From the sequence record MH494197.1: 64,000 nt of DNA; one strand, written 5' to 3'. Below, piece by piece: positions 2,818-18,767 of this stretch; positions within the stretch are counted from its first letter, which is position 1, and each line of letters begins with the position of its first letter. The DNA is from Escherichia phage CMSTMSU. The notes below the pieces were generated by a model. It had not been told where the DNA came from and did no database searches. It saw only the letters and a list, made by a program, of their open reading frames with translations. A program made the position numbers and the translations under genes.

Positions 2818-4169
2818 TTAGAGTACTTTTATGAACTGCATAAGATGGACGGAATGCACCAGAACCAGTTGAACGAGAATACTGTTTAGTACTGTTCCCG
2901 GAAGCAATTCTACGCCGTTAATAAAAGAACCAACTGCTGAACCAAATGAAGGACGAACTATGCCATTTCTGAAATCAGTTGAAATGTTCGCACGTACATT
3001 AATCATGCTATATATTGATTGTGCAGTAAATTTAGCTTTCTGCATAAGTAATGGTTCTGCTAAGTTTGGACATGCAGTACAGAATACTTCACCTGTATTC
3101 AAATAATAATATGAACTGTAAATGTTTCTTGCACCGCTATGGTCATATAACGGATCGTTGTTGAGAACATTACCAGTAGCAACCAATGCCGAACCTGTGT
3201 TTGTAACAACAAATGGTGCAGCAAATGTACCAATATCGTTCCCATTATCCAAGTTACATTGTTTAGTACTCATGTTAAAATTGAAACTATAACTATGCTG
3301 TGGTCGGGTATTGTAGTTTGCCATAGTGAACCATGCGTCACCATTCATTCTGAATCGGAAGTTCTGCGTTCCGGCTCCTGAGCAACATATAAATCGATAG
3401 ATGTCATATAAATCCCCATACCAGCCAAATTTTGTGGTACATAGACATAGGGCTTATCAGCAATATTAGTTGAGTTAACATGGTCAGTAATGATCATATT
3501 ATTCTGAGCAGTATATGTAGTATTGTAAAAGTTTTTGTTGTCCACCCCGTGATTCGGGTAGCAGTATAAGTACCGTTTGCAATATTCAACACAACACGAA
3601 CAACAACAATCTGTAGTTTGTTATTTTCATTAAGGACGTTGAATACATAAACTGAACCGTCTTCTGCCATCATAGCATACTCAATCCCACCTTCAGGTGA
3701 AATATCAGCTTGGTTCACAAAAGACCACTATGTTGAGTATCATCCAATGTACCATTCGTTACTGATATAAACAACCCATTAGTATTGGTAGATGTGTCAT
3801 TGTAACGACCTAACAGTATTTTTGAATCGGTATTGTATAAACCAATAGCAACACGGTTTGCCCCAAAATAGCCGGCTTATACTGACGGCTTGTATTAACA
3901 GTACGGCTCATATCGGTAACGGATAATGCGTTCGCTAGGTAAGAATAAAATAAACCTTCAACACTACCGTTTGTACCACTACGTAATAGTACTAATGTGC
4001 CATCGTTTTCTAAAAGTATTTTGTTTCTACGTTGGGATTGGTTTTCTGATGCACCATTAAAATCACCAGATACCCCAGCAGGTAGATAGTTATGTGTACC
4101 ATAATGCGAGATTGGAAGTAAACTAATTACATCAAGTAATTCTTCTTTGGAATATGTATCAATTTCCAT
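2818..4169 (-). CDS. putative tail fibre/adhesin-like protein (frameshift-fragmented)
   Basis: fragments 3810-4169, 3494-3718, 3345-3545, 2818-3348; N-terminal LLPISHYG and DGTLVLLRSGTNGSVEG paralogous to 222-1456. Confidence 0.3.
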
Positions 4170-4322
4170 ATTACCATTAGCATCAAATACTTGATCATTG
4201 ATACCCTGTACTGTTCTTTTCCTTTAACTGTCACATTATGAGTGACGTCTAAGCCACCATATATTTTCTTTGACATACATATCCCTTGTAATTTAGATAT
4301 TAGTTACTGTATTTATGAATGT

Positions 4323-4346
4323 AATAAAAAGCACCCATTGGGTGCT
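4323..4346 (-). terminator. rho-independent terminator-like hairpin downstream of nrdG
   Basis: plus-strand AGCACCC-att-GGGTGCT stem-loop preceded by A-run (U-tract on minus strand) directly after nrdG stop. Confidence 0.5.
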
Positions 4347-4351
4347 TGTGT

Positions 4352-4820
4352 TTAAAAGTCTTTATTTTTATATAAAATTCGTTGGTTATTTGAACCACGA
4401 AATGGTAATGTTAAATTCTTTTCTTCTGAAACAAATTTACCATCAACTAATACATCTAAGTACTGAAGAATGTCTTTAGCATGATTATTCATAATCTCTT
4501 CTAAAGTATATCCACTCCAGCACCAAATAGTTTTATTGGGATAAGTTTCTTTTACAATCTTACATAGTTCTAAAATTGTTTCTATGTTCTTTTTCATTAG
4601 AGGATCTCCACCAAGGAGGGATAATCCACTAACGTAAGGCTTACTGAGTTCAGCTAAAATTATATCAATTGTATCAGTACTGAACTCTTGTCCACTTCTA
4701 TAATCCCATGCTTCTTCGTTGAAGCATCCGGCACACCCATGACTGCACCCACTAACAAAAGGGAGCATCTTACTCCCTCCCATTAATAAGGTCGTCTTTA
4801 ATTATCGTCTGGTAATTCAT
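4352..4820 (-). CDS. nrdG: anaerobic ribonucleotide reductase activating protein (radical SAM)
   Basis: CSHGCAGC radical-SAM cysteine cluster, GGDPL, IWCWSGY, DGKF, RGSNNQR motifs matching T4 NrdG; N-terminus MNYQ... recovered upstream of a 1-nt frameshift near 4785. Confidence 0.85.
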
Positions 4821-4873
4821 CTAATATTGCACTCACTATCTCAACGAGAACATCACCATGACATGATTTCGGT

Positions 4874-5104
4874 TTACAGAAACAGCCAAGACGTTTCTGC
4901 TAACTCAAGTAAATCATCAATCTTAACTTCTCCATTAGAAATACGCTCAATAATGTATTCTCTGAACTTTTCGATTGATTCTTCCCTTGTAGCAACAATG
5001 AACTCGGCTTTGGTCTGTTTATCACTGATATGGGTAAATGGGTTTCCATTTAGACCCACGCCCGATATACACATCATACGGTTCTTTATATTTGTTAACC
5101 ACAA
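4874..5104 (-). CDS. hypothetical protein
   Basis: 76 aa ORF between nrdD and nrdG on the same strand. Confidence 0.3.
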   Translation of the reverse strand: MWLTNIKNRMMCISGVGLNGNPFTHISDKQTKAEFIVATREESIEKFREYIIERISNGEVKIDDLLELAETSWLFL

Positions 5105-6956
5105 TTGGCTTTAAATCCATAATGTACCTTATTTGTGTTGTATACGCTCACAACATTCTTGTTGTTTTCCTTTGTTGAATCCACGAGACGATGGGTTCCC
5201 AAATATCCAGAAACACGACGAATCACTGAGATTGTCTTCTCATTGCGATTATCACATACTGGACAATGAAAACCGTGTTTATCTACACTGAACTCACCTT
5301 TATACCCACACTCGTAACACTGGTCAATTGGCTGGTTGATGCCAAAATATGGAATCTTTGTGTAAGCGTAATTGACTAAAGTCTCAAGTGCTTGAATATT
5401 GTTACTTAGGTTGGGTGATTCAACATAACTGATGTTTCCACCATTACTGAGGTAAGCAAATCCCTCTTCGTAACTCCACTTATCAAATGGTGAACTTTCT
5501 ACCCATACTGGTTGATGGAAGGAATTTGTGATGTAATCACGTTTTAGTACTGAAGGGTATTTAGATTCGATGCAACGTGCAAATTTGTAGCAAAGTGACT
5601 CTGCTGGGGTTCCATATAGACTAAAAGCTATATTACTCTCTTTTTGAACTCATCGCATTTTACTTTCATATAATTCAGTACTGACATACAGAACTCCTTA
5701 CTGATAGAACCAGTCAGAATTTCTGAACATTCAACTAAACCAACGTAACCAATACTAATACTAGCATATCCGTTATAAAATAGCTTGTCAATCGTTTCTT
5801 CTGCCCCTAAACGTGAAAGTGCACCTTCCATGAACAAAATCGGATTCTGCTTCGCTTTTGTGCCTTTTAAACGCTCTACGCGGTTCATCTGAGCACGATA
5901 TGCAATATTCATATGCTCGTCTATTTTATCAAAAACTCTCCATCTGAGGCACTTTCAAGAGCAATTAGAGGTAAATTGATAGAAACTACGCCTAAGTTGA
6001 AACGACCGTTATATTGCTCATTTCCATTGGAATCTTCCCATTTTCCCAAAATGAACGACAGCCCATCGGGGTTACTGCTGTACTGCTACTTCCTGTAACT
6101 TTGTGATTTAACGGCACAGAAACGAAGTCTGGGTAGATTCTCTTCGATGCACAACGCATTGCCAACTGTTTCATGTCATAGTTGCAATCATCGCTATTCA
6201 TGTTGATTCCGTCCTGTAAAAAGAAAATTACTTTAGGAAACACAGGAGTAATCTTATCTTTACCTAAACCATTCTCATGTACTTTTAAGTACTGTTCAGT
6301 GATTAATTTGCCAAATTTTGAAGTATTCAGTCCTAAACTAAGAGAAATGAATGCTGCTTGTCCGTTTGTACTAATCATTGAATTTGTCTGGTAAAGTAAG
6401 GTTTGACACCCATCATAGACTTCTTTTCGTAATTCTTCCTCAATGTATTCAGTACTGAGATTATATGCCTTTTGCTTCGCTAATAGCTTATCCCACGACT
6501 TTTGGACGTAAGGTTCAAGACCAACGTCGATATGAGCCAACGATTGACCACCGTACTGGGAACTTGCAACAGCTTGTACAATTTGTGTCAGTACTGTACA
6601 TGCTACACTAAAACTCTTTGGTTCTTCAATTTTGGCACAACCAATGGTAAATCCATTTTTAGCATATCTGGATAGTTAACCAAGCAACAGTTAGTTAATG
6701 GGCTGATATAGTAGTCTAAATCATGAATGTGACCATAACCATCATTATGCCACTGCATTAGCTCCTTTGGAATAACATCTTGTGAATAATGCTTAGATAG
6801 GATACCAGCAAGTAAATCCCTGTGTGTATTGACGCATTTCGCATCTTTGTTTGCATTTTCATTTGTAAGATCAGTATTGCTCTGATTTAGGAAATTTGTT
6901 ACGTCAGTATATAATTTATCTAATTGCATTTTACTTTCCTTGTATTTTGAAATCAT
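5095..6956 (-). CDS. nrdD: anaerobic ribonucleoside-triphosphate reductase (frameshift-fragmented)
   Basis: fragments 6603-6956, 5992-6540, 5628-5912 plus C-terminal region; glycyl-radical motif RRVSGYLG translated from about 5190-5215; total about 620 codons; frame changes at about 6540-6603 and 5912-5992. Confidence 0.85.
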
Positions 6957-7060
6957 CTGGGGTGAAGTTATTTAACATCACCAGACACCATTATAGCGTC
7001 AGAACAGGGTATTTCTATTGATCTATATCAAGGAAAGGTCACATTGCTTTTATTTGCACA

Positions 7061-8578: not shown

Positions 8579-8943
8579 TCATGTGTGAATAATTTCTTTG
8601 ACCCCATATTCCATAATTGCCAACGTACAAATCTCACAAGGCTTGGCAGGGACTGGAATACCATCTTTACTTACCCGTGCAATCAACAAAGTATGAACTT
8701 CAGCACGAGAAGCCAGCAAACATGAGATTTCAGCATGAAGAAATTCACCTTGTGGACGACCAGCACGGATTGCAAAACCTTTCTGTACTGGGTGAGTATG
8801 TGTGTAAGAATTAGTACGTGTTGCCAATACACGACCTTTCTTATCTAGTGCACGAGCAATCACACGATAACGTTTGTAGCTCCCACTTGCTCGATTGGTG
8901 GCATCCGTCGCAATTCTTCAATTAGTTTCTCAAGTTTACGATT
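8579..8943 (-). CDS. CDA-fold zinc-dependent (deoxy)cytidine/nucleotide deaminase-like protein
   Basis: HAE ... PCEIC zinc-binding signature in ORF 8579-8863; N-terminus MNRKLEKL upstream of a frameshift. Confidence 0.5.
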
Positions 8944-9135
8944 CATAAGTCTAAGTCTATACCCTTTTCAAATGATTTCTCTAGAACCCAAAGTTTACAT
9001 TCTTCACTCTCCAAATGCATCTTTGCCTCTTTCTGTTGTTCTATTGTACAAGACTTTATAAATTCACGCAAGGCTTCTATTGTACTTTTTATATTTTTAT
9101 GTCTTCCAGAATTGTTTCTTTGGCTTCAGCATCAA

Positions 9136-18034: not shown

Positions 18035-18295
18035 CTACGTATTAAGTTTCTGACAAATCATGTCAGCTTCAACACGGTCTTTATAATAAATGGTAAAACC
18101 AAATTTACCAGTTACTTTATACTCTTTACAAGTTAAACAATTTACAATGTAGTACTTGTTGTTTTGTGCTGAAAATCGTACTTCATGATTACGCATCACT
18201 GGTGGAGTAGTATTATCATTTAATACCATCATCACTAAGAGTACAAGAATCACAACTGCAAATGGAATACCTAAAATCAAGAAAGTCAAAGTCAC
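18035..18295 (-). CDS. small membrane-anchored protein
   Basis: 86 aa, N-terminal transmembrane helix, GTG start overlapping the cd stop. Confidence 0.4.
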   Translation of the reverse strand: MTLTFLILGIPFAVVILVLLVMMVLNDNTTPPVMRNHEVRFSAQNNKYYIVNCLTCKEYKVTGKFGFTIYYKDRVEADMICQKLNT

Positions 18296-18767
18296 AACCC
18301 CTTATCATAAATGCAATTTACAATAATCCCAGCATCTTCCAGTACTTTAATAGCTTCTGGTGGAGTGCGAGGATAACTTTGTGATAAATCACGCGAGCAA
18401 TACCACTTCCCGCGATCAACTTAGAACAAGTATAGCATGGTTGCAGCGTTGTGTAAAGTGTTGCTCCCTGACGTTCGGTAGGTGAACTGTATAACAATGC
18501 ATTCATTTCAGCATGGATTTCATGGATATTACTCCATTCATGGTGTTCATGCTTTGCGTCATCGCTAACCCAGTCTTGGAAACGTCCACCATTAACTAAG
18601 TGCTCATTAGCGTCACAGCAGTTAGGTTGTTTAGATGGAGTGCCATTATAACCAGTACTCAATACTCGGTTATTTTTAACAATAACACAACCAACTTTCT
18701 GTGAAATGCATTTACTCTCTTCAGCCACGACTTCGGCTATCTTCAACCACGTCAAGTGTTTCATCAT
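18292..18767 (-). CDS. cd: deoxycytidylate (dCMP) deaminase
   Basis: ESKCISQKVGCVI, STGYNG, HAEMNAL and PCYTCSKLI zinc motifs with a T4 Cd-like insert; C-terminus frameshifted. Confidence 0.8.

Follow-up and report, generated by a model that had tools for sequence, protein, structure and literature searches.

A minimal deaminase of Escherichia phage CMSTMSU and its phage-only family: a possible cytosine-nucleotide deaminase

Why should a phage that already encodes a canonical deoxycytidine monophosphate (dCMP) deaminase carry a second, smaller protein with the zinc signature of the cytidine deaminase (CDA) fold, and on what substrate might that protein act? The question is raised by a 64,000-nucleotide stretch of Escherichia phage CMSTMSU (sequence record MH494197.1), referred to here as the window, in which the original prediction had placed such a protein at 8579-8943 in addition to the canonical enzyme, Cd. 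A gene with the CDA signature is indeed found there, on the minus strand, although its start had been misplaced and its span does not form a single reading frame. The corrected product, called here the small deaminase, belongs to a large phage-only family of small, very basic proteins. The interpretation that we favour, and that we regard as about evenly balanced between being right and being wrong, is that it is a minimal, non-allosteric cytosine-nucleotide deaminase, acting on dCMP or the triphosphate dCTP, that supplies deoxyuridine mono- or triphosphate (dUMP or dUTP) for the synthesis of thymidine monophosphate (dTMP). The gene is already known in that it is annotated in relatives as 'dCMP deaminase' or 'cytidine/deoxycytidylate deaminase', and the paper on phage CBB already lists 'two CMP/dCMP deaminases' (PMC5259590); what is new is the recognition that it stands for a large and uncharacterised group, confined to phages, in which the fold is minimal and its topology non-canonical.

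The determination of what the gene encodes requires that its reading frame be established first, and the following features are needed for this.

8579 to 8946, minus strand: the small deaminase gene, 368 nucleotides in the window against 369 (122 amino acids and a stop codon) in relatives, from translations and alignment to three relatives.
8885 to 8946, minus strand: the N-terminal segment in frame A, predicted to comprise helix alpha1 (residues 3-14) and to run into the first part of the linker between alpha1 and beta1, from translation and an AlphaFold2 predicted local distance difference test (pLDDT) of about 80.
8882 to 8884: a homopolymer run, CCC on the plus strand and GGG on the coding strand, one base short and the source of an apparent -1 frameshift; it reads GGGG in Turkey3, vB_Ec-M-J and 121Q.

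The ATG lies at 8946-8944 on the minus strand, and the upstream gene ends in an overlapping TGA at 8945-8943. Neither 8579-8943 (365 nucleotides) nor 8579-8946 (368 nucleotides) is divisible by 3, and the description of a single open reading frame (ORF) given beforehand had silently joined two frames, with no mention of a frameshift. In the raw window, frame A translates from the ATG as MNRKLEKLIEELRRMPPIEQVGATNVIV and then meets a stop; the deaminase core, ending in SGSYKRYRVIARALDKKGRVLATRTNSYTHTHPVQKGFAIRAGRPQGEFLHAEISCLLASRAEVHTLLIARVSKDGIPVPAKPCEICTLAIMEYGVKEIIHT and a stop, sits in the -1 frame and finishes at 8579. This core includes SGSYKRYRVIARALDKK, LHAEISCLL, AKPCEICTLAI and the terminal IIHT before the stop codon, and the program-made list of ORFs shows at this gene only a 94-residue ORF with a GTG start, at 8579-8863. 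The corrected full-length protein of 122 residues is MNRKLEKLIEELRRMPPIEQVGSYKRYRVIARALDKKGRVLATRTNSYTHTHPVQKGFAIRAGRPQGEFLHAEISCLLASRAEVHTLLIARVSKDGIPVPAKPCEICTLAIMEYGVKEIIHT. It is a homologue of 121Q gp490 and of Turkey3 XMR01135.1, it is identical to the proteins of Turkey3, Ecwhy_1 and fEgEco12, and the 369-nucleotide coding sequence (CDS) is intact, under one or other of the labels cited above, in Turkey3, vB_Ec-M-J and 121Q.

Megablast places the window in the 121Q/PBECO4 group of jumbo coliphages, as Asteriusvirus-like and with 99% identity to Turkey3 and WPEC5. The coding-strand sequence GTGGGGAGC of the relatives appears in the window as GTGGGAGC, one base having gone from a run of four Gs. 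The 1 kb around the gene contains five indels, all of which are single-base homopolymer deletions, and over 24 kb the window shows 116 deletions of one or a few bases relative to Turkey3 (81 of them in runs of at least 4 bases) and 0 insertions; the homopolymer deletion rate is about 5 per kb, and six-base runs number 2 in the window against 28 in Turkey3. At least 30 relatives, including some that are 99-100% identical, all carry an intact deaminase ORF. Because the deletions run in one direction across the window and the ORF is intact in all relatives, the one-base deletion at 8882-8884 is very probably a sequencing artefact. If the deletion in the G run were real, the gene would be a genuine pseudogene in CMSTMSU or would be read by means of a programmed -1 frameshift, a view to which the raw sequence lends itself, since its frame is lost at a homopolymer, in principle a potential slippery site. 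We consider this scarcely credible, since the 116 one-directional deletions also disrupt neighbours such as nrdD, the ORF survives in every relative, and strong purifying selection acts on the gene (Nei-Gojobori dN/dS, the ratio of nonsynonymous to synonymous substitution rates, of 0.035-0.05, with dS up to 0.84, for three Asteriusvirus copies). With homopolymer deletions as frequent as this, no frameshift or pseudogene that the window seems to contain should be trusted.

The under-calling of homopolymers is systematic in positions 1-24000 and probably extends over the whole window, and most long genes look like strings of short ORFs. The gene nrdD, which encodes the anaerobic ribonucleotide reductase (about 5100-6960, minus strand), appears as fragments at 5628-5912, 5992-6540 and 6603-6956, with nrdG just beyond; it is intact, at 1806 nucleotides, in Turkey3, 121Q and Sharanji, and its fragmentation in the window is consistent with the same sequencing artefact.

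With the frame corrected, the residues on which the assignment to the deaminase fold depends can be located as follows.

8729 to 8737, minus strand: H71-A72-E73, at the N-terminal end of helix alpha2, giving the catalytic glutamate and the first of the zinc ligands; from translation, invariant in alignments.
8627 to 8641, minus strand: P103-C104-E-I-C107, with the remaining two zinc ligands, where helix alpha3 begins (reverse complement CCTTGTGAGATTTGT); P, C and C invariant.
8675 to 8677, minus strand: R91, a near-invariant arginine (97% conserved) located where strand 3 ends on its C-terminal side; a 10-residue loop leads on to PCxxC.
8768 to 8812, minus strand: an inserted segment with a modelled helix at residues 53-61, in which conservation is at least 90% for N46, H52 and P53 and 89% for Q55.

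The zinc and catalytic motifs are all located downstream of the frameshift. The predicted HAE ... PCxxC signature thus stands, with H71, C104, C107 and E73 all present in the corrected protein. These four residues are invariant both in an alignment that extends from Rak2-like to more distant homologues, in which R91 is also invariant, and in a diverse alignment of 69 family members; the pattern H[A/S]E...PCxxC is kept by 145 of 149 cluster representatives. The motif exceeds what chance would produce, because a search of the entire 64 kb, in six frames, for [HC]xE...xCxxC in ORFs of at least 80 codons returned only the small deaminase and the canonical Cd. The signature of the family as a whole can be written A...DKxGR..S.G.NSYxKTHPxQ...A...GxP....LHAEIxAL...VxR....G....AKPCxICxxAI...GIK.V.YT. 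In phiKZ gp260 (3998-4357 of its locus), HSE replaces HAE, as it does in 6 of the 145 motif-bearing representatives, and the catalytic glutamate is kept.

The canonical enzyme encoded in the same window serves as the comparator.

18318 to 18767, minus strand: the canonical gene of dCMP-deaminase type (Cd), with HAEMNAL...PCYTC and a Cys/His-rich insert (KQPNCCDANEH...HEHHEW); PF00383 78.7 bits, 159 amino acids in relatives.

This gene had been described as a T4-like Cd at 18292-18767; its identity as a canonical Cd, at 18318-18767, is borne out by the Pfam score, and the phage is an Asteriusvirus-like jumbo phage, not T4. BLASTP of the small deaminase against the window Cd gives an E-value of 9.8, which is no detectable similarity, and on this ground a truncated duplicate of cd, one of two outcomes named beforehand as fatal to the prediction, is ruled out; the other, a loss of the zinc ligands on sequence correction, was likewise not what was found, as the ligands are intact. 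The small deaminase is accordingly a second, independent deaminase of the CDA fold. The Cd ORF itself has 149 codons in the window, ending in VIYHKVILALHQKLLKYWKMLGLL and a stop, against 159 in its homologue (Turkey3 XMR01116.1, 'deoxycytidylate deaminase', 480 nucleotides), and its C-terminus has probably been shortened by a similar homopolymer deletion. A candidate third deaminase, annotated in Sharanji as 'tRNA-specific adenosine deaminase', was rejected as such, being a homologue of the canonical Cd and not of the small deaminase.

AlphaFold2, supplied with an alignment of homologues, models the small deaminase with a pLDDT of 89.7 and a predicted template-modelling score (pTM) of 0.83. 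The modelled elements are helix alpha1 (residues 3-14), strands beta1 (28-34) and beta2 (40-45), the inserted helix (53-61), helix alpha2 with HAE (72-80), strand beta3 (86-92), the 10-residue loop, helix alpha3 with PCxxC (105-113) and strand beta4 (118-121), after which the chain ends at T122. The N-terminus that had been called unusual is simply helix alpha1. H/CxE in helix 2, PCxxC in helix 3 and a sheet of order 2-1-3-4(-5) between helices, the features that characterise the CDA-fold superfamily, are all found, and as modelled the protein is a minimal CDA fold that stops after strand 4. About 40% of family representatives stop directly after this strand and most others add 10-15 residues; relatives of about 100 residues are without even helix alpha1. 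The deaminase superfamily is divided according to whether a helix 4 lies between strands 4 and 5, making them parallel, or the two strands form a hairpin and are antiparallel (PMC3239186). In the model of the long-form relative P0073 (pLDDT 96.5), beta4 (111-115), a 5-residue turn and beta5 (121-125) form an antiparallel hairpin, so that the predicted topology of the long forms is of the cytidine-deaminase type and not of the helix-4 type of dCMP deaminase or TadA. The hairpin is seen in long-form predicted models only, the small deaminase itself being without strand 5, a loss that has a precedent because the Bd3614 clade is also without this strand (PMC3239186). The downstream 73-residue ORF was considered as a split-off C-terminal part of the enzyme and rejected: it has no Pfam match, and many lineages have short forms with no conserved neighbour at the +1 position.

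The top-ranked Foldseek matches (E 2.5e-4, TM up to 0.59) are to tetrameric cytidine deaminase and blasticidin-S deaminase, and human dCMP deaminase follows closely, all of these E-values being weak; in a sequence-profile search the nearest solved proteins are dCMP deaminases (4p9c, E 5.5e-6), and phmmer of the small deaminase against the sequences of the Protein Data Bank (PDB) found no relative. The protein is matched by Pfam PF00383 (E 7.7e-6, 26.2 bits, cutoff 25) and by PHROG 174 'dCMP deaminase' at 1e-11, and NCBIfam yields no match at E <=0.1. Taken together, searches of Pfam, PHROGs, NCBIfam, PADLOC and PDB sequences returned generic or sub-threshold matches only, with no direct family assignment.

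Homologues are nevertheless abundant. Homologue searches reached E-values down to 5e-74 and 195 phage records, and found members in all Rak2-like jumbo phages (RaK2, GAP32, CBB, 7t3, XaC1) as well as in phiKZ-like phages (gp260, 34% identity, the HSE variant), Aeromonas Plateaulakevirus and T4-like cyanophages. An exhaustive search of representatives gave 579 clusters at 50% identity (E <=1e-3, all of 100-165 residues), a profile search gave at least 1,598 clusters at 90% identity (E <=1e-8), and two peptide patterns led to 345 confirmed relatives in IMG/VR. All genomic contexts examined for family members are those of phages. The median isoelectric point (pI) of the family is 9.6, with 98% of members above 8; that of the small deaminase is about 9.8, against 7.07 for the window Cd. 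The names given to family members in the source databases are inconsistent ('deoxycytidylate deaminase', 'TadA', 'hypothetical'). If the favoured interpretation is right, the enzyme of this family, with 100-122 residues and four or five strands, may be the smallest working form of the deaminase fold.

The affinities of the family can be determined more closely by comparison with each group of known deaminases. Canonical dCMP deaminases (T4 Cd, 1VQ2; S. mutans, 2HVV; cyanophage S-TIM5, 4P9C; ComEB; human DCTD) have a helix 4, a strand 5 and C-terminal helices, none of which is present in the model of the small deaminase, and in place of their parallel helix-4 arrangement the long forms of the family are predicted to have the beta4-beta5 hairpin. 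The canonical enzymes also carry a Cys/His-rich insert for a second zinc, whereas the small deaminase has a helical KTHPxQ insert, SYTHTHPVQKGFAIRAGRPQGEF, which contains no cysteine and offers H52 as the only conserved candidate, so that a second zinc site of the canonical kind is not found. Further differences are the 10-residue loop between strand 3 and PCxxC and a pI of about 9.8 as opposed to about 7. Judging from the size of the protein and the missing segments, the canonical allosteric site for dCTP and deoxythymidine triphosphate (dTTP), which in canonical dCMP deaminases goes with a hexameric assembly, is unlikely to exist in it. The ComEB model (TIGR02571) is matched by 14 of the 69 members, below threshold only, and by the small deaminase not at all at E <=0.1.

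Tetrameric cytidine deaminases and blasticidin-S deaminases, which make up the CDD/CDA clade of the hairpin division, usually have CAE, of which HAE is an acceptable minority variant. The shared derived characters of that clade are a PCxxCR motif and a glutamate in strand 5 (PMC3239186); the small deaminase has neither of these (it reads PCEICT, with no arginine after the second cysteine), nor the C-terminal helix, and its TIGR01354 score is 12.8 bits against a cutoff of 113.65. Its conserved basic residues suggest a phosphorylated substrate, unlike that of the CDD/CDA clade. Matches of the family to the NF041025 domain, and with it to the PBCV-1 bifunctional dCMP/dCTP deaminase (7FH4), are all far under the curated cutoff of 400 bits, and the anti-phage dCTP deaminase has a kinase-like N-terminal domain that is absent from the small deaminase, from which it also differs in C-terminal topology. 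The Bd3614-like deaminases, a branch of the TadA clade, resemble the small deaminase in having no terminal strand 5 (PMC3239186), and PF14439 is weakly matched by 9 of the 69 members; the small deaminase itself, however, gives no PF14439 match. Among the 69 members, the sub-threshold NCBIfam matches are to the anti-phage dCTP deaminase domain (39), tetrameric cytidine deaminase (26 and 17), ComEB (14) and TadA (7). The family is therefore placed among the cytosine nucleoside/nucleotide deaminases, with a sequence like that of deoxycytidylate deaminases and a C-terminal topology like that of cytidine deaminases, and it falls outside the defined bounds of each.

Some automatic annotations make family members TadA-like deaminases of tRNA adenosine-34, an identification that we hold to be highly improbable. 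Proteins of the TadA clade are recognised by an E-PC-l-MC motif, by a basic residue that follows strand 4, and by a pair of helices beyond strand 5 with a conserved E and F (PMC3239186). The TadA model (NF008113) is matched by the 7 members just mentioned far below threshold, the PC[V/L]MC motif is replaced in the small deaminase by AKPCEIC, and the defining C-terminal helices are absent from the structural model, which has no residues after strand 4. The one protein of a close relative that bears such a label, that of Sharanji, belongs with Cd as noted above. A phage tRNA-Arg was considered as the target and rejected: the window contains no tRNA genes, and the gene is present without tRNA-Arg in phiKZ (which has tRNAs Thr, Asn, Asp, Met, Pro and Leu) and in Aeromonas phage phiA019 (tRNA-Pro only).

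On the proposal that the small deaminase acts on free cytosine nucleotides, H71, C104 and C107 would hold the zinc-bound water, Glu73 would shuttle the proton, Asn46 at the end of strand 2 would contact the sugar, and a conserved basic set (K/H50, H52, R91 and K102) would presumably bind the phosphate. The substrate would be a free cytosine (deoxy)nucleotide, most likely dCMP and possibly dCTP or deoxycytidine. The product, dUMP or dUTP, would pass to the phage thymidylate synthase and the precursor pool would be moved from C to T, a shift that may suit a genome of 34% G+C in a host of about 51% G+C. The protein would be an auxiliary enzyme that is expressed early, is probably oligomeric and works without regulation; unregulated action is proposed because there is no room for an allosteric dCTP/dTTP site, unlike in the canonical Cd about 10 kb away.

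The affinities of sequence and structure point mostly toward cytosine nucleos(t)ide enzymes, and the phyletic pattern fits a nucleotide substrate. In phiKZ, gp260 is the only ORF with the CDA signature (phmmer with the canonical Cd gave no match there at E <=1), and thymidylate synthase, dihydrofolate reductase, thymidylate kinase and ribonucleotide reductase are encoded; in phiA019 the family member is the only gene of the CDA fold and stands beside thyA, dut, nrdAB and nrdDG. The genes of the family lie in modules for replication and nucleotide metabolism or in early modules. The gene of the window lies about 1.6 kb from nrdD/nrdG, one metagenomic locus (L010) has the order MazG-like gene, deaminase, ribonucleotide reductase, a second (L018) has ribonucleotide reductase and glutaredoxin nearby, and the neighbours in IMG/VR loci include the small subunit of ribonucleotide reductase, PolB, DnaB and UvsX. 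The carriers are AT-rich (34.2% G+C for the window, 34% for the phiKZ locus and 36% for phiA019, with 94% of 80 IMG/VR loci below 45%), and the hosts of such phages are much more GC-rich. A thymidylate synthase gene is present in the Asteriusvirus Sharanji (PMC11895373), and a primary transcription start site is recorded for phiKZ gp260 early in infection (PMC8244752). If the proposal is correct, many AT-rich phages, phiKZ and the Rak2/121Q jumbo phages included, push the C precursors of their hosts toward T with a stripped-down, unregulated enzyme. The family would then help to define the minimal catalytic core of a fold much used in base editors, and the inconsistent labels 'dCMP deaminase', 'TadA' and 'hypothetical' for one family would be corrected.

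Several considerations weigh against this assignment. A canonical Cd is already present in the same genome, so that a second dCMP deaminase is redundant unless it differs in specificity or regulation. The helix-4, strand-5 and helix-5 elements of canonical dCMP deaminases are missing from the model, and the 80 IMG/VR loci show no conserved neighbour gene and no enrichment of thymidylate synthase beside the gene. Literature searches for 121Q, PBECO4, phiKZ gp260 and PHIKZ260 found no assay of a family member, only the gp260 transcription start site. Annotated fragments of a dCTP deaminase occur in phiKZ, where an alternative route to dUMP may therefore exist. Finally, the strikingly basic character of the family would also suit a polyanionic nucleic-acid substrate, and phage 'dCMP deaminases' can deaminate single-stranded DNA (ssDNA) in vitro, sometimes with selectivity for 5-methylcytosine (5mC) or 5-hydroxymethylcytosine (5hmC) (10.1101/2024.12.05.627091). 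The 'putative dCTP deaminase' pieces of phiKZ, gp214 and gp217, are separated by two small ORFs and are possibly a split or interrupted gene.

The basic character of the family bears on the main competing explanation, in which the small deaminase acts on C in ssDNA or RNA, of host or phage, and not on free nucleotides, its small and very basic surface binding the backbone in the service of host takeover, a mutator function or editing. The high pI of nearly all members is in keeping with this, as is the hairpin of the long forms, since that division includes the nucleic-acid toxin deaminases MafB19, SCP1.201, YwqJ and DYW (PMC3239186). PF14437 (MafB19-deam) is weakly matched by 40 of the 69 members, and phage 'dCMP deaminases' of PF00383/PF14437 are active on ssDNA in vitro (10.1101/2024.12.05.627091). 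The coexistence with Cd, in addition, speaks against simple redundancy. However, the small deaminase scores 13.3 bits on PF14437 against a gathering score of 27 and is a standalone phage protein without a conserved neighbour, and the similarity to MafB19-like toxins appears to be generic because the canonical Cd scores higher on the same model, at 55.6 bits. The phage deaminases active on ssDNA also differ from the family in their canonical fold and in their linkage to thymidylate synthase homologues. We consider a polynucleotide substrate unlikely. In a fuller form of this explanation, which we would rate as distinctly unlikely, the family is a natural ultra-compact polynucleotide cytosine deaminase (100-125 residues, four-stranded and basic), an early-expressed editor or mutator of ssDNA or RNA in many unrelated phage lineages, phiKZ included, while the canonical Cd serves the nucleotide pool; this division of labour would explain the presence of both enzymes in Rak2-like jumbo phages. 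Were a polynucleotide the substrate, the family would add a new class to the editors encoded by phages and offer a very compact scaffold.

The coexistence with Cd would also be explained by a difference in specificity if the small deaminase acted on C5-modified cytosine nucleotides (5-methyl- or 5-hydroxymethyl-dCMP or -dCTP), as do the mSCD enzymes of phages with modified DNA. These enzymes are, like the small deaminase, phage-encoded single-domain deaminases of PF00383, they show that mononucleotides and ssDNA may both be accepted, and selectivity for 5mC or 5hmC is polyphyletic among phage PF00383 deaminases (10.1101/2024.12.05.627091). They co-localise, however, with thymidylate synthase homologues (70% within 3 kb; 10.1101/2024.12.05.627091), which the small-deaminase family does not, and mSCD-B5 is a protein of 154 residues with the prototypical dCMP-deaminase fold (Foldseek 7fh4, E 2.9e-15), as compared with the best E-value of 2.5e-4 for the small deaminase. 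The papers on Asteriusvirus that were consulted gave no sign of cytosine modification, and a C5-modified substrate is in our judgement improbable.

The immediate surroundings of the gene are marked by two short overlaps.

8579 to 8582, minus strand: ATGA overlap of the TGA stop of the deaminase gene with the ATG of the downstream 73-residue ORF; from sequence, with a 4-nucleotide CDS overlap in Turkey3, 121Q and vB_Ec-M-J.
8943 to 8946, minus strand: ATGA overlap of the stop of the upstream 204-residue ORF with the ATG of the deaminase gene; from sequence, with a 4-nucleotide CDS overlap in relatives.

ATGA overlaps are found also at 1782-1785 and 2147-2150 of a relative's locus (L001). Their presence on both sides of the gene suggests that the three genes may be translationally coupled, as a unit which is conserved in Asteriusvirus. 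The upstream ORF, like the downstream one, has no Pfam match, and in 121Q the next gene downstream is annotated 'HrgC'. No conserved partner gene was found in the 80 IMG/VR loci, for which a narrower alignment was used, and metagenomic contexts taken at random were either short or gave little information. Among the neighbours of the mini-deaminases of about 100 residues, the most frequent is a 203-residue protein without a Pfam match, which is found in 13 of 70 IMG/VR loci (L035 and 12 others) and lies directly upstream in 8. On a wider scale, the region of Turkey3 that is syntenic with positions 1 to about 24000 of the window (80000-104200) also encodes three ClpP-like protease subunits, a NAD-dependent deacylase of CobB/sirtuin type, PhoH, a MazG-like NTP pyrophosphohydrolase, a metallophosphatase and DNA ligase, a concentration of host-like housekeeping functions that is unusual for a phage. 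Among the metagenomic loci, the large subunit of ribonucleotide reductase two genes downstream of the family member in L010 (6740-9364) is split by an intein with a LAGLIDADG homing endonuclease, and a 92-kb phage contig (L009) carries an IS605-family OrfB/TnpB (Cas12f-like) gene at 4291-5502, two genes upstream of its family member.

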